In this document: positions 1 through 25,137 of the stretch, in pieces
Layout of the letters: the number at the start of each line of letters is the position of its first letter
Position numbering within the stretch: the first letter of the stretch is position 1
Sequence record: MZ065353.1
Direction: 5' to 3' (one strand)
Length of the DNA: 64,000 bases
Source of the DNA: Escherichia virus KFS-EC3
Made by a program: the position numbers and the translations under genes
Notes under the pieces: generated by a model
What the model saw: the letters and a program-made list of their open reading frames with translations, nothing else
The model's database searches: none
What the model was told of the DNA's origin: nothing

Positions 1-1703
1 ATAAAATTCGTGGGTTTATCGATCTAGTTTTAAGTATGTCTTATTACGCTAAAATGCCTTTTTCTGGTGTAATGAGCCCTATTAAAACTTGGGATGCTAT
101 TATTTTTAACTCACTGAAAGGTGAACATAAGGTTATTCCTCAACAAGGTTCGCATGTTAAACAGAGTTTTCCAGGTGCATTTGTATTTGAACCTAAACCG
201 ATTGCTCGTCGATACATTATGAGTTTTGACTTGACGTCTCTGTATCCTAGCATTATTCGTCAGGTTAACATTAGTCCTGAGACTATTCGTGGGCAGTTTA
301 AAGTTCATCCAATTCATGAATATATCGCAGGAACAGCTCCTAAGCCAAGTGATGAATATTCTTGCTCTCCGAATGGATGGATGTATGATAAGCACCAAGA
401 AGGTATCATTCCAAAGGAAATCGCTAAAGTATTTTTCCAGCGTAAAGATTGGAAAAAGAAAATGTTCGCGGAAGAAATGAATGCCGAAGCTATTAAAAAG
501 ATTATTATGAAAGGTGCAGGGTCTTGCTCAACTAAACCAGAAGTTGAACGATATGTTAAGTTCAGTGATGATTTCTTAAACGAATTATCGAATTACACCG
601 AATCTGTTCTTAATAGTCTGATCGAAGAATGTGAAAAAGCAGCTACACTTGCTAACACAAATCAGCTGAACCGTAAAATTCTTATTAACAGTCTTTATGG
701 TGCTCTTGGTAATATTCATTTCCGTTACTATGATTTGCGAAATGCTACTGCTATCACAATTTTTGGTCAAGTTGGTATTCAGTGGATTGCTCGTAAAATT
801 AATGAATATCTGAATAAAGTATGTGGAACTGATGGTGAAGATTTCATCGCCGCGGGTGATACTGATTCGGTATATGTTTGTGTAGATAAAGTAATTGAAA
901 AAGTAGGTCTTGACCGCTTTAAAGAACAAAATGATTTAGTTGAATTCATGAATCAGTTTGGTAAGAAAAAGATGGAACCTATGATTGATGTTGCATATCG
1001 TGAGTTATGTGATTATATGAATAACCGCGAGCATCTGATGCATATGGACCGTGAAGCTATTTCTTGCCCTCCGCTTGGTTCAAAGGGTGTTGGTGGATTT
1101 TGGAAAGCGAAAAAACGTTATGCTCTGAACGTTTATGATATGGAAGATAAGCGATTTGCCGAACCGCATCTAAAAATCATGGGTATGGAAACTCAGCAGA
1201 GCTCAACACCAAAAGCAGTACAAGAAGCTCTCGAAGAAAGTATTCGTCGTATTCTTCAGGAAGGCGAAGAGTCTGTCCAAGAATACTACAAGAACTTTGA
1301 GAAAGAATATCGTCAACTTGACTATAAAGTTATTGCTGAAGTAAAAACTGCGAACGATATAGCGAAATATGATGATAAAGGTTGGCCAGGATTTAAATGT
1401 CCGTTCCATATTCGTGGTGTGCTAACTTATCGTCGAGCTGTTAGCGGTTTAGGTGTAGCTCCAATTTTGGATGGAAATAAGGTAATGGTTCTTCCATTAC
1501 GTGAAGGAAATCCATTTGGTGACAAGTGCATTGCTTGGCCATCGGGTACGGAACTTCCAAAAGAAATTCGTTCTGACGTACTGTCTTGGATTGACTACTC
1601 AACTTTGTTCCAAAAATCGTTTGTTAAACCGCTTGCGGGCATGTGTGAATCGGCAGGTATGGACTATGAGGAAAAAGCTTCGTTAGACTTCCTGTTTGGC
1701 TGA
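1..1703 (+). CDS. 43: DNA polymerase gp43, C-terminal portion (5' end lies upstream of window)
   Basis: Frame open to window edge; family-B polymerase motifs DLTSLYPSII and AAGDTDSVYV; ends SLDFLFG; synteny 43-imm-42. Confidence 0.95.
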   Translation, partial: KIRGFIDLVLSMSYYAKMPFSGVMSPIKTWDAIIFNSLKGEHKVIPQQGSHVKQSFPGAFVFEPKPIARRYIMSFDLTSLYPSIIRQVNISPETIRGQFKVHPIHEYIAGTAPKPSDEYSCSPNGWMYDKHQEGIIPKEIAKVFFQRKDWKKKMFAEEMNAEAIKKIIMKGAGSCSTKPEVERYVKFSDDFLNELSNYTESVLNSLIEECEKAATLANTNQLNRKILINSLYGALGNIHFRYYDLRNATAITIFGQVGIQWIARKINEYLNKVCGTDGEDFIAAGDTDSVYVCVDKVIEKVGLDRFKEQNDLVEFMNQFGKKKMEPMIDVAYRELCDYMNNREHLMHMDREAISCPPLGSKGVGGFWKAKKRYALNVYDMEDKRFAEPHLKIMGMETQQSSTPKAVQEALEESIRRILQEGEESVQEYYKNFEKEYRQLDYKVIAEVKTANDIAKYDDKGWPGFKCPFHIRGVLTYRRAVSGLGVAPILDGNKVMVLPLREGNPFGDKCIAWPSGTELPKEIRSDVLSWIDYSTLFQKSFVKPLAGMCESAGMDYEEKASLDFLFG

Positions 1704-1716
1704 TAGAATAAATCTA

Positions 1717-1737
1717 GGGACCTCCGGGTCCCTTTTT
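1717..1737 (+). terminator. Rho-independent terminator after gene 43
   Basis: Hairpin GGGACC-TCCG-GGTCCC followed by TTTTT. Confidence 0.65.
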
Positions 1738-1820
1738 CATACAAGTAATATAAATCTATACTTAGGAAAAATAGATGATTCTAGGTCCTATAAATTCATT
1801 AAAAATTTTTTCACAAAACT

Positions 1821-1850
1821 GTTTACATCCCTGTTCTTCCATGGTACTAT
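1821..1850 (+). promoter_or_regulatory. early (sigma70-type) promoter inside PeSL-like cassette
   Basis: TTTACA-N17-TACTAT; same cassette recurs at 29632, 30139, 33441, 50716. Confidence 0.5.
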
Positions 1851-1878
1851 ACAACTATCAACTACGGAGGAACACAAA

Positions 1879-2130
1879 ATGAAAAACATTCAAACTAATT
1901 TTATTCAAAATTTAAAAGTTGTTAATGCAGAAAAAGCTAATAAACTCTTTAAAGTTAAAGAATTCGAAAATGAAGGTAATACTTATGGTATTATAGAACA
2001 AAATGGAATGGTGACTGGATTAGAAATTTATAATGGCAAAGGAAAATTTCAGTCACAGCCAATTTCTGTTATGGGTGTAAGAAAAGGAATTAAAACTGAA
2101 GATGCTTTAAAATTATTTGTTAAGTTTTAA
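1879..2130 (+). CDS. hypothetical protein (83 aa), cassette cargo ORF
   Basis: ATG 7 nt after SD GGAGG in conserved leader; ORF-track frame 1696..2130 trimmed to this ATG. Confidence 0.5.
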   Translation: MKNIQTNFIQNLKVVNAEKANKLFKVKEFENEGNTYGIIEQNGMVTGLEIYNGKGKFQSQPISVMGVRKGIKTEDALKLFVKF

Positions 2131-2142
2131 GAGGAAATTATT

Positions 2143-2523
2143 ATGAAAATCGCTATTTTGGTTATTGCGTTGGGTCTTACTGGTTGTGTAGCTCAAGGAC
2201 CGGTAGTAAATCAATCTGATGTAGGAAAAATTGTAAACTGTTCAAGCAAATTTTATAATCCTAACGTCAAGTGTTATAAAGAAGCTCCAAAACAGACAGT
2301 AGAACAAATGCAGGCGAATTTTGACGAAGCTATTCGTCCAGACGAATCTGCTCAAGCATATCGTAATTCAGATGTAATTACACGTGAAGAAAAAATTGAA
2401 AACTACTGCGCCGAACTTTGGGCTAATTGGGCTAATAATTACCAATGGCGTACTGGTAAAAATGCTCCGATGGAGTATGTAGTGAATTCTTATAATTCAT
2501 GCGTAAAAAATTTGACTAAGTGA
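2143..2523 (+). CDS. predicted lipoprotein (126 aa), imm.1-like position
   Basis: SD GAGGAAATT; N-terminal signal peptide with lipobox LTGC. Confidence 0.6.
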   Translation: MKIAILVIALGLTGCVAQGPVVNQSDVGKIVNCSSKFYNPNVKCYKEAPKQTVEQMQANFDEAIRPDESAQAYRNSDVITREEKIENYCAELWANWANNYQWRTGKNAPMEYVVNSYNSCVKNLTK

Positions 2524-2530
2524 GGAAAAC

Positions 2531-2782
2531 ATGGAAACTTTAGTAGCAGGTTCAATTTTTATGGTTTTAGTTTCAGGCGTGTTGGCTATTATTATATACA
2601 TGCTTCCATGGTTCATCGCCTTGATGCGTGGGTCAAAATCGACAGTAGGAATCTTTTTCACGTCTTTACTGTTTAATTGGTCAATTATTGGTTGGTTTAT
2701 TACATTTATTTGGTCAATTGCGGGTGAAACTAAAAAATCCGCACAACCAAATCAAGTAATTATCATCAGAGAGAAGGAATGA
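2531..2782 (+). CDS. imm: superinfection immunity membrane protein Imm
   Basis: 83 aa, two hydrophobic helices, same length and position as T4 Imm. Confidence 0.85.
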   Translation: METLVAGSIFMVLVSGVLAIIIYMLPWFIALMRGSKSTVGIFFTSLLFNWSIIGWFITFIWSIAGETKKSAQPNQVIIIREKE

Positions 2783-2928
2783 AAAGCAAAATTTTAGCAG
2801 TATTGCTTTTAATCTTGATGATTATAATAAGTATATACTATAGCGTAACGGTTCCTTGTATGATTCCGACACTTATTATAGGTTGGGGTTTATTACTGTT
2901 ACAAGTTAAATATGAATGTATCAATTGA
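2779..2928 (+). CDS. small hydrophobic protein (49 aa)
   Basis: ATG overlaps imm stop (ATGA); single TM-like segment; below ORF-track size cutoff. Confidence 0.3.
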   Translation: MKSKILAVLLLILMIIISIYYSVTVPCMIPTLIIGWGLLLLQVKYECIN

Positions 2929-2935
2929 GGTTTAA

Positions 2936-3676
2936 ATGATTAGTGACTCTATGACAGTTGAAGAAATCCGTCTTCATTTGGGGCTTGCATTAAAGGAAAA
3001 AGATTTCGTAGTTGATAAAACTGGTGTTAAAACTATTGAAATTATTGGTGCATCATTTGTAGCAGATGAACCTTTTATTTTTGGCGCTCTTAATGATGAA
3101 TACATTCAACGTGAACTTGAATGGTATAAGTCTCAAAGTCTGTTTGTTAAAGATATTCCAGGTGAAACACCGAAGATTTGGCAGCAGGTAGCATCTTCTA
3201 AAGGCGAAATTAACTCGAATTATGGTTGGGCCATCTGGTCAGAAGATAACTATGCCCAGTATGATATGTGTTTAGCTGAACTTGGTCAAAATCCTGATTC
3301 TCGACGCGGTATCATGATTTATACTCGTCCATCCATGCAATTTGACTACAATAAAGATGGTATGTCAGATTTCATGTGTACGAATACAGTACAGTACCTG
3401 ATTCGTGATAAGAAAGTCAATGCGGTTGTTAGCATGAGAAGCAATGATTGCTGGGCAGGCTATCGTAATGATTATGCTTGGCAAAAATACGTACTAGATA
3501 AATTAGTATCTGATTTGAATGCAGGCGACCCATCGCGGCAATATAAAGCAGGTTCTATTATATGGAACGTTGGAAGTCTTCATGTGTACGAAAATCAGTT
3601 TTATTTAGTTGACCATTGGTGGAACACCGGTGAGACTCATATTGCTAAAAAGGATTATACTGGAAAATGGAAGTAA
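2936..3676 (+). CDS. 42: dCMP hydroxymethylase
   Basis: 246 aa, near-identical to T4 gp42 as recalled (MISDSMTVEEIRLHLG...). Confidence 0.95.
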   Translation: MISDSMTVEEIRLHLGLALKEKDFVVDKTGVKTIEIIGASFVADEPFIFGALNDEYIQRELEWYKSQSLFVKDIPGETPKIWQQVASSKGEINSNYGWAIWSEDNYAQYDMCLAELGQNPDSRRGIMIYTRPSMQFDYNKDGMSDFMCTNTVQYLIRDKKVNAVVSMRSNDCWAGYRNDYAWQKYVLDKLVSDLNAGDPSRQYKAGSIIWNVGSLHVYENQFYLVDHWWNTGETHIAKKDYTGKWK

Positions 3677-4308
3677 ATGTGCCACATGTTTATAAGTATA
3701 AACATCCTAAAACTAAAAAGTGGTATATAGGAAGTCATGATGGTCACAACCCGAATTATGATGGTTCGGGTGTAGTTTGGCAACATGCTAAAAAGAAATA
3801 TGGAATAAAATCCTTTAATAAAGAAATATTATATGAAGGACCAATGTTTAGACAGGTTGAAGAAATTATTTTAACTTGTTTAGATGCTGCTAATTGTCCG
3901 GATTCATATAATTTAAAGAATGAAGCATGGGGAGGAAGTTTTCCAGGCAAATTAAATGGAATGTACGGTAAAAAACTATCTCCAGAAGAAAGATATAAGT
4001 GCGGAAATGCCTTTCGTGGAATCAAGCGTCCTGATCATTCTAAAAGAATGAAAGGCGAAGGTAATCCAATGTATGGTAAAAATGAGCAGGCATATGGAAT
4101 TATAAATCGAGCCAAGGAAAATTCTGGTAAAACTTATGAAGAAATTTTTGGCGTAGAAAAAGCTAAAATAATTAAAGAAACGATGTCTAAAAATCGTAAA
4201 GGAAAACCTCATAATTTGATAGAAAAAATATGTCCGCATTGCGGACTAAAAGGACGTGGGCCAAATATGACAAGATACCATTTTGACAAATGTAAGGCAC
4301 TTAAATGA
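3667..4308 (+). CDS. GIY-YIG homing endonuclease-like protein (Seg-type) with NUMOD3-like repeats
   Basis: VYKYKHPKTKKWYIGSH...YDGSG motif; repeated G-K/R-x-S/N modules; C-terminal CPHC...C; overlaps 42 stop and downstream start. Confidence 0.75.
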   Translation: MEVNVPHVYKYKHPKTKKWYIGSHDGHNPNYDGSGVVWQHAKKKYGIKSFNKEILYEGPMFRQVEEIILTCLDAANCPDSYNLKNEAWGGSFPGKLNGMYGKKLSPEERYKCGNAFRGIKRPDHSKRMKGEGNPMYGKNEQAYGIINRAKENSGKTYEEIFGVEKAKIIKETMSKNRKGKPHNLIEKICPHCGLKGRGPNMTRYHFDKCKALK

Positions 4309-5147
4309 TTCAATTCGTAATTCCAAGCTATCAACGCGTAGGGGCAGTTTCTGCCCTTGATATGTTTCCGACTGATTATGAACCTCATATTGTAGTACGT
4401 GAACACGAAGAAAAAGCTTATTATGACGCTTACGGGTCTAGGGCTAAAATTATAACTATTCCTGATGATGTCAATGGAATTGCTGGTACTCGTAAAGCAA
4501 TTACTGATATGTATGCAGGTCAACGAATTTGGATGATTGATGATGATACTACTATTCGTATGAGTTCAATGCGAAAGAAAGATGATCGTCGCTGCGTAGA
4601 TAAAATTAATCAGTTAACTCGTGAACAGTTCTATGAATTGATTCAATACGTTGAAGATGCCATGGATTGCGGGTATTATCATGGTCATGCTCGTTTACCA
4701 ATTTTTAAAATTACTTCATCTTGGGGTAATTATCGTGAAAATTCATATGGATTCACGAATACTTGGTATGACCTCGGGAAACTTACAACAGAACAAATTG
4801 GGTATGGAAAAATTGATTTATGCGAAGATATGTATGCATTTCTCAATTTAATTAATCAAGGTTATCCGCATTTGGCCTTGTTCAAATATCTGGTTGTATC
4901 CGGAAAAGCGCAAGCTCCTGGTGGATGTAGTTCAATTCGTAGTAATTCAAAACATAATAGAGCTCTTGAGCAAATCAATAGAGAGTTTCCAGAGCAAGCT
5001 CGTTGGAAAACTTCTAATATTGAAAAACGAAAATCATTAGGTGAAGAAGACGAGCCATTAAAGGTTCTTCGCATGTGTGTTTCGCGCAAAGAAAAATCAG
5101 AAGCGTTTCATAAGTTTAATGCTATTCATCCAATAGCAGTTGATTAA
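4305..5147 (+). CDS. GT-A fold glycosyltransferase, probable DNA (glucosyl-)HMC glucosyltransferase
   Basis: 280 aa; VIPSYQR N-terminus and DxD motif IWMIDDDTTI; occupies T4 beta-gt locus between 42 and uvsX. Confidence 0.6.
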   Translation: MIQFVIPSYQRVGAVSALDMFPTDYEPHIVVREHEEKAYYDAYGSRAKIITIPDDVNGIAGTRKAITDMYAGQRIWMIDDDTTIRMSSMRKKDDRRCVDKINQLTREQFYELIQYVEDAMDCGYYHGHARLPIFKITSSWGNYRENSYGFTNTWYDLGKLTTEQIGYGKIDLCEDMYAFLNLINQGYPHLALFKYLVVSGKAQAPGGCSSIRSNSKHNRALEQINREFPEQARWKTSNIEKRKSLGEEDEPLKVLRMCVSRKEKSEAFHKFNAIHPIAVD

Positions 5148-5224
5148 TGCCTAAATTTATTGTGTTATAATTACTCTATCTTTAACCAGTGAGGAAAATA
5201 TAATGATGCCTATGGAAAAAATGA

Positions 5225-6406
5225 ATGTCTATTGCAGATTTAAAATCCCGTTTGATTAAAGCTTCCACTTCTAAAATGACTGCTGAACTGACTACATCTA
5301 AATTCTTTAATGAAAAGGATGTAATCCGTACAAAAATTCCAATGCTCAATATCGCTATTTCCGGCGCGATTGATGGTGGTATGCAGTCTGGTTTAACCAT
5401 TTTTGCAGGTCCTTCTAAACACTTTAAATCAAATATGTCTTTGACTATGGTTGCGGCGTATTTGAACAAATATCCTGATGCGGTTTGTTTATTCTATGAT
5501 AGCGAATTTGGTATTACTCCAGCTTATTTGCGATCCATGGGAGTTGACCCGGAACGTGTAATTCATACACCAATCCAGTCAGTTGAACAACTGAAAATTG
5601 ATATGGTGAATCAGCTTGAAGCTATTGAGCGCGGTGAAAAAGTTATTGTATTCATCGACTCAATCGGTAATATGGCTTCTAAGAAAGAAACGGAAGATGC
5701 CTTGAATGAAAAATCTGTGGCAGATATGACTCGTGCTAAATCACTGAAGTCATTATTCCGTATTGTTACTCCTTATTTTAGTATTAAAAACATTCCGTGC
5801 GTTGCGGTTAACCATACAATTGAAACAATTGAAATGTTTAGTAAAACCGTGATGACAGGTGGTACAGGCGTAATGTATTCGGCTGATACTGTATTCATTA
5901 TCGGTAAGCGCCAGATTAAAGATGGTTCTGATCTTCAGGGGTATCAATTTGTTCTAAATGTAGAAAAATCTCGTACCGTCAAAGAAAAAAGTAAATTCTT
6001 TATTGATGTTAAATTTGACGGTGGTATCGATCCTTATTCTGGATTGTTAGATATGGCTCTTGAATTAGGATTTGTGGTAAAACCTAAAAATGGCTGGTAT
6101 GCTCGTGAATTTCTTGATGAAGAAACCGGCGAGATGATTCGCGAAGAAAAATCTTGGCGTGCAAAAGATACCAACTGCACTACATTCTGGGGTCCTTTAT
6201 TTAAGCATCAGCCATTCCGAGATGCTATTAAACGCGCTTATCAGTTAGGTGCTATTGATAGTAATGAAATTGTTGAAGCTGAAGTTGATGAATTGATTAA
6301 CTCAAAGGTTGAAAAATTTAAATCTCCAGAAAGTAAAAGTAAATCAGCAGCTGATTTAGAAACTGACCTAGATCAGTTAAGTGATATGGAAGAATTTAAT
6401 GAATAA
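5225..6406 (+). CDS. uvsX: recombinase UvsX (RecA-like)
   Basis: 393 aa; Walker A GPSKHFKS; near-identical to T4 UvsX as recalled. Confidence 0.95.
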   Translation: MSIADLKSRLIKASTSKMTAELTTSKFFNEKDVIRTKIPMLNIAISGAIDGGMQSGLTIFAGPSKHFKSNMSLTMVAAYLNKYPDAVCLFYDSEFGITPAYLRSMGVDPERVIHTPIQSVEQLKIDMVNQLEAIERGEKVIVFIDSIGNMASKKETEDALNEKSVADMTRAKSLKSLFRIVTPYFSIKNIPCVAVNHTIETIEMFSKTVMTGGTGVMYSADTVFIIGKRQIKDGSDLQGYQFVLNVEKSRTVKEKSKFFIDVKFDGGIDPYSGLLDMALELGFVVKPKNGWYAREFLDEETGEMIREEKSWRAKDTNCTTFWGPLFKHQPFRDAIKRAYQLGAIDSNEIVEAEVDELINSKVEKFKSPESKSKSAADLETDLDQLSDMEEFNE

Positions 6407-6743
6407 AGATGATTTAGATTTAGATCTAGAAATTATCGATGAATCCCCCTCTTCGGAGGGGGAAGAAGAAAGAAAAGAACGTCTTTTTAATGAATCTCTT
6501 AAGATAATTAAATCTGCTATGGAAAATGTTATCCAGGAGATTGTCATTAAACTAGAAGACGGTTCTACACACATTGTGTATGTGACAAAATTAGATTGGG
6601 TTGATGGAAAAGTCGTAATGGACTTTGCTGTTCTTGACCAAGAAAGAAAAGCTGAGTTAGCTCCTCATGTAGAAAAATGTATTACAATGCAACTACAAGA
6701 TGCGTTTAATAAAAGGTCAAAGAAAAAATTTAAATTCTTTTAA
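6399..6743 (+). CDS. 40: head vertex assembly chaperone gp40
   Basis: 114 aa from ATG overlapping uvsX stop; position between uvsX and 41. Confidence 0.75.
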   Translation: MNKDDLDLDLEIIDESPSSEGEEERKERLFNESLKIIKSAMENVIQEIVIKLEDGSTHIVYVTKLDWVDGKVVMDFAVLDQERKAELAPHVEKCITMQLQDAFNKRSKKKFKFF

Positions 6744-6752
6744 GGAGTAAGT

Positions 6753-8180
6753 GTGGTAGAAATTATTCTTTCTCATCTCATATTTGATCAAGCTTATTTT
6801 TCAAAAGTTTGGCCATATATGGATTCAGAATATTTTGAAAGTGGTCCAGCTAAAAATACATTCAAATTAATTAAATCTCATGTTAATGAGTACCATAGCG
6901 TTCCATCTATTAATGCGTTAAATGTTGCATTAGAAAATAGTTCATTTACTGAAACAGAATATTCTGGTGTAAAAACACTTATTTCAAAACTGGCCGATTC
7001 TCCGGAAGACCATAGCTGGTTAGTAAAAGAAACAGAAAAATATGTTCAGCAAAGGGCGATGTTTAACGCCACATCTAAAATAATTGAAATTCAAACTAAT
7101 GCTGAGCTTCCTCCGGAAAAACGAAATAAGAAAATGCCAGATGTAGGTGCTATTCCTGACATCATGCGCCAAGCATTATCAATTTCATTTGATAGCTACG
7201 TTGGTCATGATTGGATGGATGACTACGAAGCACGTTGGCTATCTTATATGAATAAAGCTCGTAAGGTTCCATTTAAACTCAAAATTCTAAATAAAATTAC
7301 TAAAGGCGGAGCTGAGACTGGAACACTGAACGTTTTAATGGCTGGTGTTAACGTTGGTAAGTCATTAGGATTGTGTTCATTGGCAGCAGATTATTTGCAG
7401 CTCGGACACAATGTTCTTTACATTTCCATGGAAATGGCAGAAGAAGTCTGTGCTAAACGTATTGATGCTAATATGCTTGACGTTTCTCTTGATGACATTG
7501 ATGATGGGCATATTTCTTACGCTGAATATAAAGGAAAAATGGAAAAATGGCGTGAGAAATCTACTCTTGGACGTTTAATCGTTAAACAGTATCCTACTGG
7601 TGGAGCAGACGCTAATACATTTCGATCGCTTTTAAACGAATTAAAGCTCAAGAAGAATTTTGTTCCAACAATCATTATTGTTGACTATCTAGGTATTTGT
7701 AAATCTTGTCGCATCAGAGTTTATTCAGAAAATAGTTACACAACTGTTAAAGCTATCGCAGAGGAATTGCGTGCTCTGGCTGTTGAAACCGAAACTGTTC
7801 TTTGGACTGCAGCACAGGTTGGTAAACAAGCTTGGGATTCTTCTGATGTTAACATGAGCGATATTGCAGAATCTGCCGGTCTTCCAGCAACAGCCGATTT
7901 TATGCTTGCGGTCATTGAAACCGAGGAGTTAGCAGCTGCTGAACAACAACTCATTAAGCAAATCAAATCACGATACGGTGATAAGAATAAATGGAATAAG
8001 TTTTTGATGGGTGTTCAAAAAGGAAATCAGAAATGGGTAGAAATTGAACAAGATTCTACTCCAACTGAAGTGAACGAAGTAGCAGGTTCACAGCAGATTC
8101 AGGCTGAACAGAATCGCTATCAAAGAAACGAATCCGCTCGAGCTCAGTTAGATGCTTTGGCAAATGAATTAAAATTTTAG
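6753..8180 (+). CDS. 41: replicative DNA helicase gp41 (DnaB family)
   Basis: 475 aa; GTG start; Walker A GVNVGKS. Confidence 0.95.
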   Translation: MVEIILSHLIFDQAYFSKVWPYMDSEYFESGPAKNTFKLIKSHVNEYHSVPSINALNVALENSSFTETEYSGVKTLISKLADSPEDHSWLVKETEKYVQQRAMFNATSKIIEIQTNAELPPEKRNKKMPDVGAIPDIMRQALSISFDSYVGHDWMDDYEARWLSYMNKARKVPFKLKILNKITKGGAETGTLNVLMAGVNVGKSLGLCSLAADYLQLGHNVLYISMEMAEEVCAKRIDANMLDVSLDDIDDGHISYAEYKGKMEKWREKSTLGRLIVKQYPTGGADANTFRSLLNELKLKKNFVPTIIIVDYLGICKSCRIRVYSENSYTTVKAIAEELRALAVETETVLWTAAQVGKQAWDSSDVNMSDIAESAGLPATADFMLAVIETEELAAAEQQLIKQIKSRYGDKNKWNKFLMGVQKGNQKWVEIEQDSTPTEVNEVAGSQQIQAEQNRYQRNESARAQLDALANELKF

Positions 8181-8209
8181 TTTACAAGCCGACAAGACTA
8201 TGGTATAGT
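8180..8209 (+). promoter_or_regulatory. early promoter upstream of dmd
   Basis: TTTACA-N17-TATAGT right after 41 stop; inverted repeat CAAGACTA/TAGTCTTG brackets the -10. Confidence 0.5.
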
Positions 8210-8238
8210 AGTCTTGTTGGTTAAATGAGGAGATTTTT

Positions 8239-8421
8239 ATGGAATTGGTAAAGGTAGTTTTTATGGGGTGGTTTAAGAATGAAAGCATGTTTACTAAAGA
8301 AATCACAATGATGAAAGATGACGTTCAATGGGCTACTACTCAATATGCTGAAGTTAATAAAGCGCTAGTTAAAGCTTTCATTGATGACAAGAAAGTATGC
8401 GAAGTGGATTGCCGAGGATAA
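8239..8421 (+). CDS. dmd: Dmd, antitoxin against RnlA/LsoA
   Basis: 60 aa, matches T4 Dmd (gene 61.5) as recalled; adjacent to 41. Confidence 0.85.
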   Translation: MELVKVVFMGWFKNESMFTKEITMMKDDVQWATTQYAEVNKALVKAFIDDKKVCEVDCRG

Positions 8422-8422
8422 T

Positions 8423-8680
8423 ATGCATATTGTTTTATTTAAACCTACTCCGTATAACGTCAGGAAAAATACTCAATTCAAAGCACTTATCGCAGATACG
8501 TGGGAATTGGTATTAGATATTCCAGCAGAAGAAAGCCCTCCATTTGGTCGAGTGGAATTTATTAAGTTTGCTGTGCGCCCTACAAAGCGGCAGATTCGCC
8601 AATGCAAAAGATACTTTCGTAAAATCGTCAAGTTAGAGAAACAGTTTGTAACATGTGATTATACAGAAGTTTTAAAATAG
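8423..8680 (+). CDS. hypothetical protein, T4 61.4-like (85 aa)
   Basis: ATG after SD GAGGATAAT, 2 nt past dmd stop; position matches T4 61.4. Confidence 0.55.
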   Translation: MHIVLFKPTPYNVRKNTQFKALIADTWELVLDIPAEESPPFGRVEFIKFAVRPTKRQIRQCKRYFRKIVKLEKQFVTCDYTEVLK

Positions 8681-8682
8681 TA

Positions 8683-8712
8683 GTTTACAAGCTGATAGAG
8701 TTGTGTTATAGT
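8683..8712 (+). promoter_or_regulatory. early promoter
   Basis: TAG-TTTACA-N17-TATAGT; inverted repeat GCTGATAGAG/TCTATCAGC around -10. Confidence 0.5.
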
Positions 8713-11465: not shown

Positions 11466-11662
11466 ATTAACCCAACTAAAGCAAATGCTAAATCTACGAA
11501 TGTATCAAGAGTAATTACTGGAATATTAACACCATGAGCAATAGCAATTGGTGATAAAACAAAATTCCAAAGTAAAATTCCTACCATAGCAGAAATAGTA
11601 AAAGCTATACGTTTTTTATTACCTTTTATGGCATTAACAAGTGCCATTAATTTTTGTACCAT
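11462..11662 (-). CDS. small hydrophobic protein (66 aa), opposite strand
   Basis: SD GGAGG 4 nt before ATG; two TM-like segments; lies between 61 and 56. Confidence 0.4.
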   Translation of the reverse strand: MVQKLMALVNAIKGNKKRIAFTISAMVGILLWNFVLSPIAIAHGVNIPVITLDTFVDLAFALVGLI

Positions 11663-23319: not shown

Positions 23320-25137
23320 ATGATTAAGAATGAAATTAAAATTCTGAGCGATATTGAACATATCAAAAAGCGTAGCGGCATGTACATTGGTTCTTCTGCT
23401 AATGAAATGCATGAGCGCTTTCTGTTTGGTAAATGGGAAAGTGTTCAGTATGTACCTGGTCTTGTTAAGCTTATTGATGAAATTATCGATAACTCAGTAG
23501 ATGAAGGTATTCGTACTAAGTTTAAATTCGCGAATAAAATTAATGTTACTATTAAAAACAATCAAGTAACAGTTGAAGATAACGGTCGTGGTATTCCACA
23601 AGCGATGGTTAAAACACCTACTGGTGAAGAAATTCCTGGTCCTGTTGCTGCCTGGACTATTCCAAAAGCAGGTGGTAACTTTGGTGATGATAAAGAACGC
23701 GTCACTGGCGGTATGAATGGTGTTGGTTCTAGTTTAACTAACATTTTTTCTGTGATGTTTGTTGGTGAAACTGGCGACGGTCAAAATAATATTGTAGTTC
23801 GTTGTTCAAATGGCATGGAAAATAAATCATGGGAAACTATTCCTGGAAAATGGAAAGGAACTCGTGTTACTTTCATTCCTGATTTTATGTCATTTGAAAC
23901 TAATGAGCTATCTCAAGTTTATCTTGACATTACACTGGATCGTCTCCAGACACTTGCAGTAGTTTATCCTGATATTCAATTTACCTTTAACGGTAAAAAG
24001 GTTCAGGGTAATTTTAAGAAATATGCACGCCAATATGATGAGCATGCTATCGTTCAAGAACAGGAAAACTGTTCTATTGCGGTCGGTCGTTCACCCGACG
24101 GTTTTCGTCAATTAACATACGTTAATAACATTCATACTAAGAATGGTGGCCATCACATTGACTGTGTTATGGATGATATTTGTGAAGACCTTATTCCACA
24201 AATCAAACGTAAATTTAAAATTGACGTAACTAAAGCACGTGTTAAAGAATGTTTGACTATCGTTATGTTTGTTCGTGATATGAAAAACATGCGATTTGAT
24301 TCTCAGACTAAAGAGCGTTTGACTTCTCCATTTGGTGAAATTCGTAGTCATATTCAGCTTGATGCTAAAAAGATTTCACGTGCTATTTTAAATAATGAAG
24401 CAATTTTAATGCCAATTATTGAAGCTGCTTTGGCTCGTAAATTGGCGGCAGAAAAAGCAGCAGAAACTAAAGCAGCTAAAAAGGCTTCTAAAGCTAAGGT
24501 TCATAAACATATTAAAGCGAATCTTTGTGGTAAAGATGCTGACACGACTCTTTTCTTGACTGAGGGTGATTCTGCTATCGGATATCTTATTGATGTTCGT
24601 GATAAAGAACTTCATGGTGGTTATCCATTACGTGGTAAAGTTCTCAACAGTTGGGGTATGTCATATGCTGATATGCTTAAAAATAAAGAACTGTTTGATA
24701 TTTGCGCAATCACTGGATTAGTTCTTGGTGAAAAGGCTGAAAACTTAAATTATCATAATATTGCCATTATGACTGACGCTGACCATGATGGTCTAGGAAG
24801 CATTTATCCTTCTCTGCTCGGATTTTTTAGTAATTGGCCAGAACTGTTTGAACAAGGAAGAATTCGCTTTGTCAAAACTCCTGTAATCATCGCTCAGGTC
24901 GGTAAAAAACAAGAATGGTTTTATACAGTCGCTGAATATGAGAGTGCCAAAGATGCTCTACCTAAACATAGCATCCGTTATATTAAAGGACTTGGCTCTT
25001 TGGAAAAATCTGAATATCGTGAGATGATTCAAAATCCAGTATATGATGTTGTTAAACTTCCTGAGAACTGGAAAGAGCTTTTTGAAATGCTCATGGGAGA
25101 TAATGCTGACCTTCGTAAAGAATGGATGAGCCAATAG
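23320..25137 (+). CDS. 39: DNA topoisomerase II large subunit (GyrB-like), unsplit gp39 (39+60 equivalent)
   Basis: 605 aa continuous ORF with ATPase and Toprim regions; no gene 60 split. Confidence 0.9.
   Translation: MIKNEIKILSDIEHIKKRSGMYIGSSANEMHERFLFGKWESVQYVPGLVKLIDEIIDNSVDEGIRTKFKFANKINVTIKNNQVTVEDNGRGIPQAMVKTPTGEEIPGPVAAWTIPKAGGNFGDDKERVTGGMNGVGSSLTNIFSVMFVGETGDGQNNIVVRCSNGMENKSWETIPGKWKGTRVTFIPDFMSFETNELSQVYLDITLDRLQTLAVVYPDIQFTFNGKKVQGNFKKYARQYDEHAIVQEQENCSIAVGRSPDGFRQLTYVNNIHTKNGGHHIDCVMDDICEDLIPQIKRKFKIDVTKARVKECLTIVMFVRDMKNMRFDSQTKERLTSPFGEIRSHIQLDAKKISRAILNNEAILMPIIEAALARKLAAEKAAETKAAKKASKAKVHKHIKANLCGKDADTTLFLTEGDSAIGYLIDVRDKELHGGYPLRGKVLNSWGMSYADMLKNKELFDICAITGLVLGEKAENLNYHNIAIMTDADHDGLGSIYPSLLGFFSNWPELFEQGRIRFVKTPVIIAQVGKKQEWFYTVAEYESAKDALPKHSIRYIKGLGSLEKSEYREMIQNPVYDVVKLPENWKELFEMLMGDNADLRKEWMSQ

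Follow-up and report, generated by a model that had tools for sequence, protein, structure and literature searches.

The beta-gt slot of Escherichia virus KFS-EC3 carries an intact gene that is very probably the T2/T6 beta-glucosyl-HMC-alpha-glucosyltransferase

The glucosyltransferase of phages T2 and T6, encoded by ba-gt (also g-gt or ggt), adds a second glucose onto alpha-glucosyl-hydroxymethylcytosine (alpha-glucosyl-hmC) in a beta-1,6 linkage, which yields gentiobiosyl-hmC (PMC13216743; bioRxiv 10.64898/2026.02.25.707755). This linkage and acceptor are contrary to the historical name of the enzyme, beta-glucosyl-HMC-alpha-glucosyltransferase. For T6, the transfer from UDP-glucose onto alpha-glucosyl-hmC in DNA is known from genetics and biochemistry, and deletion of ba-gt leaves alpha-glucosyl-hmC only and turns T6 DNA into a substrate of Brig1 and BapA (PMC11078745; bioRxiv 10.64898/2026.02.25.707755). 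T6-like Tequatroviruses with both an alpha-glucosyltransferase and this enzyme, a member of the TAGT (TET-associated glycosyltransferase) family, contain hmC, alpha-glucosyl-hmC, and gentiobiosyl-hmC by LC-MS, and their TAGT gene is syntenic in position with T4 beta-gt (PMC13390438). An AlphaFold3 model of the T6 TAGT protein has a GT-A fold and clusters beside GT2 as a sister group (PMC13216743). Thus, publications from 2024-2026 cover the phenotype of the T6 deletion, the assignment to GT-A, the synteny with T4 beta-gt, and the detection of gentiobiosyl-hmC in T6-like phages by LC-MS.

We analyzed a 64,000-nucleotide stretch of Escherichia virus KFS-EC3 (sequence record MZ065353.1; referred to below as the window), which is a segment of a T4-like (Tequatrovirus) genome. 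Its gene order was the C-terminus of gene 43 (36..1703), imm.1/imm-like genes, gene 42, a 213-aa open reading frame (ORF), ggt, and uvsX, followed by gene 40, gene 41, and later gene 61. The features of the locus were as follows:

2936 to 3676, plus strand: gene 42, dCMP hydroxymethylase (Pfam Thymidylat_synt, E = 1.5e-14)
3667 to 4308, plus strand: Seg-like GIY-YIG homing endonuclease ORF, 213 aa, at the gene 42/ggt junction
4294 to 4297, plus strand: AAGG, a plausible Shine-Dalgarno element read from the sequence, 7 nt before the ggt ATG
4305 to 5147, plus strand: ba-gt/g-gt/ggt coding sequence (TAGT family), ATG at 4305, TAA at 5145-5147, 280 aa plus stop
5225 to 6406, plus strand: uvsX, the downstream neighbor of ggt

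The 280-aa ORF that the preliminary description had placed here was real according to both the ORF list and the sequence. The gene 42 region was about 93% identical in nucleotide sequence to its T4 counterpart. In a blastn map, window positions 2143-3668 and 5237-8688 were collinear with T4 at 93% identity, and positions 3669-5236 had no T4 counterpart; T4 holds beta-gt and segA in that slot. The map thus placed the ORF between gene 42 and uvsX, where T4 has beta-gt, as had been proposed. The accompanying claim that the protein is unrelated to T4 beta-gt also held, with a best BLASTP E value of 3.4.

The earlier identification with T2/T6 beta-alpha-gt was borne out by direct alignment. The window protein showed 99% amino acid identity to the T2 protein (three T2 records) and 98% to the T6 beta-glucosyl-HMC-alpha-glucosyltransferase (two T6 records), each over 280 aa. 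The differences were R11H, K92R, I101V, and P251S with respect to T2 and Y40N, D55G, K92R, I101V, and R106H with respect to T6. In a megablast search, the ORF matched 474 GenBank phage records over its full length at 90-99% nucleotide identity, many of them annotated as beta-glucosyl-HMC-alpha-glucosyl-transferase. The protein matched PHROG 842, 'beta-glucosyl-HMC-alpha-glucosyltransferase' (E = 5.6e-89), and Pfam PF20691, TAGT (38.8 bits versus a gathering cutoff of 27.5). The Pfam match spanned residues 3-207, corresponding to model positions 2-205 of 205, and 80 of 80 aligned relatives matched the same family; NCBIfam had no model for the protein. Because of the full-length records and the PHROG and Pfam matches, the ORF is not a chance reading frame. 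Together with the identity levels and the slot between gene 42 and uvsX shared with T2 and T6, these matches make it highly likely that the ORF is an orthologue of the T2/T6 enzyme (EC 2.4.1.28; ba-gt, g-gt, ggt; Pfam TAGT). This T2/T6 gene has long been known, is intact here, and adds nothing new to the textbook and recent literature. A divergent T4 beta-gt or alpha-gt was ruled out, as neither showed similarity by BLASTP and tblastn. A pseudogene or hypomorph was also ruled out, since the frame was intact and every conserved residue was kept, unlike in some T2/T6 laboratory records. An IMG/VR scan gave five near-identical ggt loci, too few for a study of variation.

T4 beta-gt (PF09198) resembles ggt in its slot, its UDP-glucose donor, its beta-linked (inverting) product, and its action on phage hmC DNA. 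However, T4 beta-gt has a GT-B fold (PMC13216743) and uses naked 5-hmC as the acceptor, whereas the window protein belongs to GT-A and ggt uses alpha-glucosyl-hmC. The window protein had no Pfam match to PF09198, and tblastn with T4 beta-gt gave no match in the 64-kb window. Phage records numbered 474 for ggt, 29 for T4-type beta-gt, and 503 for alpha-gt. The first two counts add up to the third (474 + 29 = 503), which, together with the matching organism breakdowns, suggests that alpha-gt nearly always occurs alongside ggt or T4-type beta-gt. As had been noted before, alpha-gt lies outside the window, since T4 alpha-gt gave no tblastn match in the 64 kb. In the relative ECP2301, which is 97% identical to the window over 20 kb, alpha-gt is found upstream of gene 43 at a distance of about 7 kb; because the window starts inside gene 43, a position like that in ECP2301 would fall beyond its left end. 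We infer that KFS-EC3 has an alpha-gt. The preliminary description had stated that this ORF replaces T4 beta-gt. The shared slot supports that statement, but its wording is T4-centric, because the counts (474 versus 29 records) make the TAGT state the norm and T4 the exception, the same conclusion as in PMC13216743. We also observed that in the GenBank records KM607002 (RB55) and KM607003 (RB59), the b-gt gene, 100% identical to T4 beta-gt, has its product mislabelled 'beta-glucosyl-HMC-alpha-glucosyl-transferase', which could mislead name-based glucosylation typing.

Next, we examined the conserved residues and the fold of the protein. An exhaustive profile search of 1.84 billion representatives gave 2169 relatives at E <= 1e-3, of which 153 were aligned to calculate conservation. 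Sixteen positions reached at least 80% conservation in this set, and the window protein has the family residue at each of them. The motifs were as follows:

4317 to 4337, plus strand: VIPSYQR, residues 5-11, N-terminal beta1 strand and nucleotide-binding motif, equivalent to the GT2 'IPxYNR'
4539 to 4547, plus strand: DDD (D79-D81), DxD metal/UDP-sugar-binding motif at the end of a beta strand
4824 to 4829, plus strand: E174-D175 'ED' motif, putative catalytic base, from conservation and a weak alignment with GT2 9jma
4920 to 4940, plus strand: GGCSSIR, residues 206-212, family-specific motif, from conservation

Both motifs quoted in the preliminary description were found: VIPSYQR spans residues 5-11, and IWMIDDDTTI spans residues 75-84, its DDD being encoded at 4539-4547. 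Among the 153 family sequences, conservation was 93% for I6, 90% for P7, and 151 of 151 for R11; 99%, 100%, and 95% for D79, D80, and D81; 79% for E174 and 100% for D175; and 99%, 100%, 85%, and 98% for G206, G207, C208, and R212, respectively. R63, also kept in the window protein, was conserved at 93%. The GGCSSIR motif is possibly involved in acceptor or DNA binding.

An AF2 model built from an alignment of nine homologues had a mean pLDDT of 71.5 and a pTM of 0.74, with pLDDT of 82-94 in the N-terminal half. It contained strands at residues 3-7 (pLDDT about 85) and at residues 74-78, just before DDD (pLDDT about 90). About one fifth of the model consisted of low-confidence loops (residues 130-150, 190-211 with pLDDT below 50, and 238-248), and the second of these overlaps the conserved GGCSxxR motif. 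The protein showed the single Rossmann-like alpha/beta/alpha nucleotide-sugar-binding domain and the conserved DxD after a beta strand that are expected of a GT-A enzyme. A PDB search with the single protein sequence gave nothing meaningful, and no solved structure of a TAGT family member was found by PDB sequence and profile searches, which were empty or marginal. With the GT2 glucosyltransferase 9jma, the profile search gave a marginal alignment (E = 0.19) that paired IPsykR with IPTYNR, lmlDDD with FLDDDD, and meD with eED, which fits the GT2 layout of a nucleotide-binding strand, a DxD, and a catalytic-base motif. The protein had no match to Pfam Glycos_transf_2. Identity to inverting GT-A enzymes of the GT2 family (BcsA 9fmv, AvpGT 9jma, TarP 6h1j, and K4CP 2z86) was 9-16%, and those enzymes act on a lipid, polysaccharide, or teichoic acid acceptor, whereas that of ggt is a sugar on DNA. 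The earlier GT-A (DxD) label is therefore sound, given the membership in Pfam TAGT and the 95-100% conservation of the DxD, and it agrees with PMC13216743.

The comparisons above establish the synteny, fold class, motif conservation, and intactness of the KFS-EC3 gene along with its orthology. The pathway in KFS-EC3 would then begin with the gene 42 product, which would make hydroxymethyl-dCMP to be built into phage DNA. The phage alpha-glucosyltransferase, whose gene is presumed to lie outside the window, would place an alpha-linked glucose on 5-hmC in the DNA, and the GT-A-fold, GT2-like ggt enzyme would use UDP-glucose to add the second, beta-1,6-linked glucose, giving gentiobiosyl-hmC. Catalysis would be an inverting, metal-dependent transfer from UDP-glucose. 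In this putative scheme, the divalent metal and the diphosphate of UDP would sit at DDD, nucleotide binding would fall to R11 and the IPSY strand, and D175 would probably serve as the base in inverting catalysis; these roles of DDD, R11, and D175 are predictions from conservation and the GT2 layout. The enzyme could instead differ in specificity: it might take its sugar from another donor, accept beta-glucosyl-hmC, or act on naked hmC as a primary glycosyltransferase. The 2169 representatives noted above make TAGT a large and varied family. Its invariant R11, DDD, D175, GG, and R212 are shared by the window protein, and most members are 20-35% identical to the window protein. Many members occur in other genomic contexts with donor and acceptor unknown, and TAGT homologues are found paired with beta-GT or alone, with activities undefined (PMC13216743). 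However, at 98% identity to the genetically characterized T6 enzyme a change is very unlikely, and the five or six differing residues fall outside the family-conserved positions. Different specificity is thus extremely improbable, and the transfer known for T6 is the preferred reading.

The 213-aa ORF upstream of ggt was 32% identical to T4 SegA (E = 4e-9) and matched PHROG 314, 'homing endonuclease'. At its 5' end it overlaps the last bases of gene 42, and its TGA stop shares bases with the ggt ATG (ATGA). This ORF is absent from T2 and T6, where the order is 42, ggt, and uvsX and the ggt ATG overlaps the gene 42 stop codon; in the window, the order is 42, Seg-like ORF, ggt, and uvsX. The insertion could break translational coupling or transcription at the gene 42/ggt junction, leaving ggt poorly expressed or silenced, because the ggt ATG overlaps here the stop of the Seg-like ORF rather than that of gene 42, and Seg genes, such as those of T4, are typically weakly expressed. 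Nevertheless, 77 phage records keep this arrangement at 95-100% identity with an intact ggt (versus 474 records with ggt), and the AAGG element resembles a Shine-Dalgarno sequence ahead of the ggt ATG. Silencing of ggt is thus very unlikely. A scan for promoters and terminators around ggt gave 13 hits versus 11.1 expected from shuffled sequences, which is not above expectation, and no promoter is claimed. In T4, segA sits on the opposite side of the same slot; Seg enzymes may therefore drive cassette exchange between gene 42 and uvsX. A GC-rich hairpin, GGGGCAG-TTT-CTGCCC, was also observed at 4339-4359 (plus strand) within ggt codons 12-18, followed by a T-rich stretch. Its 16-nt core did not vary among T2, T6, and the five IMG/VR loci, although synonymous variation occurs nearby; the hairpin might act as an RNA element or as a target for an endonuclease.

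Although the T2 and T6 enzymes are nearly identical in sequence, gentiobiosyl-hmC makes up about 5% in T2 DNA (PMC13390438; bioRxiv 10.64898/2026.02.25.707755) and about 72% in T6 DNA, so that ggt alone cannot tell a T2-like from a T6-like pattern. A ggt gene could thus be present in KFS-EC3 with low gentiobiosylation as in T2, leaving the DNA effectively mono-alpha-glucosylated. This alternative draws on the T2 protein, 99% identical to that of the window, and on the Durham TAGT phages, which show two different ratios (PMC13390438), indicating that determinants outside ggt exist. To compare the enzymes, we translated the T2 ggt records. All of them (AP018813, MH751506, and LC348380) carried R11H (CAT) and P251S, and the position of the first was as follows:

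L004:5093-5095, also in L006 and L007, minus strand: T2 ggt codon 11, R11H (AP018813, MH751506, LC348380)

Neither T2-specific substitution occurs in the window protein, which keeps R11, as do T6 and every other relative examined, in line with the invariance of this residue in the family. The exact T2 63-mer with the H11 codon was confined to 8 T2/SV76 records among 267 matching records. Furthermore, every LC-MS-typed natural T6-like isolate had at least about 40% gentiobiosyl-hmC (PMC13390438). A low T2-like level in KFS-EC3 is thus unlikely, if less so than silencing. R11H is a reasonable candidate cause of a hypomorphic T2 enzyme and of the low gentiobiosyl content of T2. We propose tentatively, as a possibility somewhat short of an even chance, that residue 11 separates T2-type (about 5%) from T6-type (about 70%) gentiobiosyl-hmC DNA. 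No statement of this idea was found in the searched literature, which did not reach the older T2/T6 papers. Since the window protein keeps R11, a T6-like, gentiobiosyl-rich pattern is favored, and we lean towards this reading for KFS-EC3 DNA from the sequence comparison.

Two T6 records carried lesions in ggt. In MH550421, an amber codon replaces Q10 (CAG to TAG; L002:4951-4953, minus strand), and the annotated CDS begins at M20 and so lacks the IPSYQR strand. In AP018814 (L003, CDS 4135-4974), one Asp of the invariant DDD is lost in frame (GATGATGAT). These lesions could be laboratory-stock mutations or sequencing errors; a supE host reads amber as Gln.

The window has no dam gene between genes 61 and 56 (11466-11640), where T4 has dam; T4 coordinates 17725 and 16825 are directly adjacent in this region, and T4 Dam matched nothing in the window by tblastn. 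A Dam-like gene is likewise missing from the Durham phages with the most gentiobiosyl-hmC (PMC13390438), a weak correlation. At window 24737-24802, about 64 bp stand in place of T4 coordinates 2794-3910, which hold the 5' part of gene 60 with its 50-nt translational bypass, 60.1, mobA, and the end of gene 39; the topoisomerase large-subunit gene appears to be unsplit in KFS-EC3, as annotated in ECP2301. Between gene 43 and imm.1 lies a small gene (window 1868-2143; listed ORF 1696..2130) that has no T4 counterpart. The match to PHROG 18567 (E = 3.7e-51), a group of unknown function, covers residues 62-144 of the listed ORF, which makes an actual product of 83 aa probable; at this position T2 has a similar ORF of 83 aa.

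The gene ggt decides whether T-even DNA carries mono-glucosyl or gentiobiosyl hydroxymethylcytosine and thereby alters sensitivity to defenses that target the modification. In the studies cited above, the Brig1 glycosylase and BapA are inactive on gentiobiosyl-hmC in vitro, whereas GmrSD and BrxU still cut gentiobiosyl-hmC DNA. The gene is ordinary, being present in hundreds of T4-like phages, and its presence in KFS-EC3 is no discovery in itself. Nevertheless, it types the phage as T2/T6-like, the common Tequatrovirus state, and such typing is useful for annotation and for the choice of therapy phages. If the proposal for residue 11 is true, the glucosylation pattern would be predictable from sequence, and KFS-EC3 would be a T6-type phage with DNA rich in gentiobiosyl-hmC.
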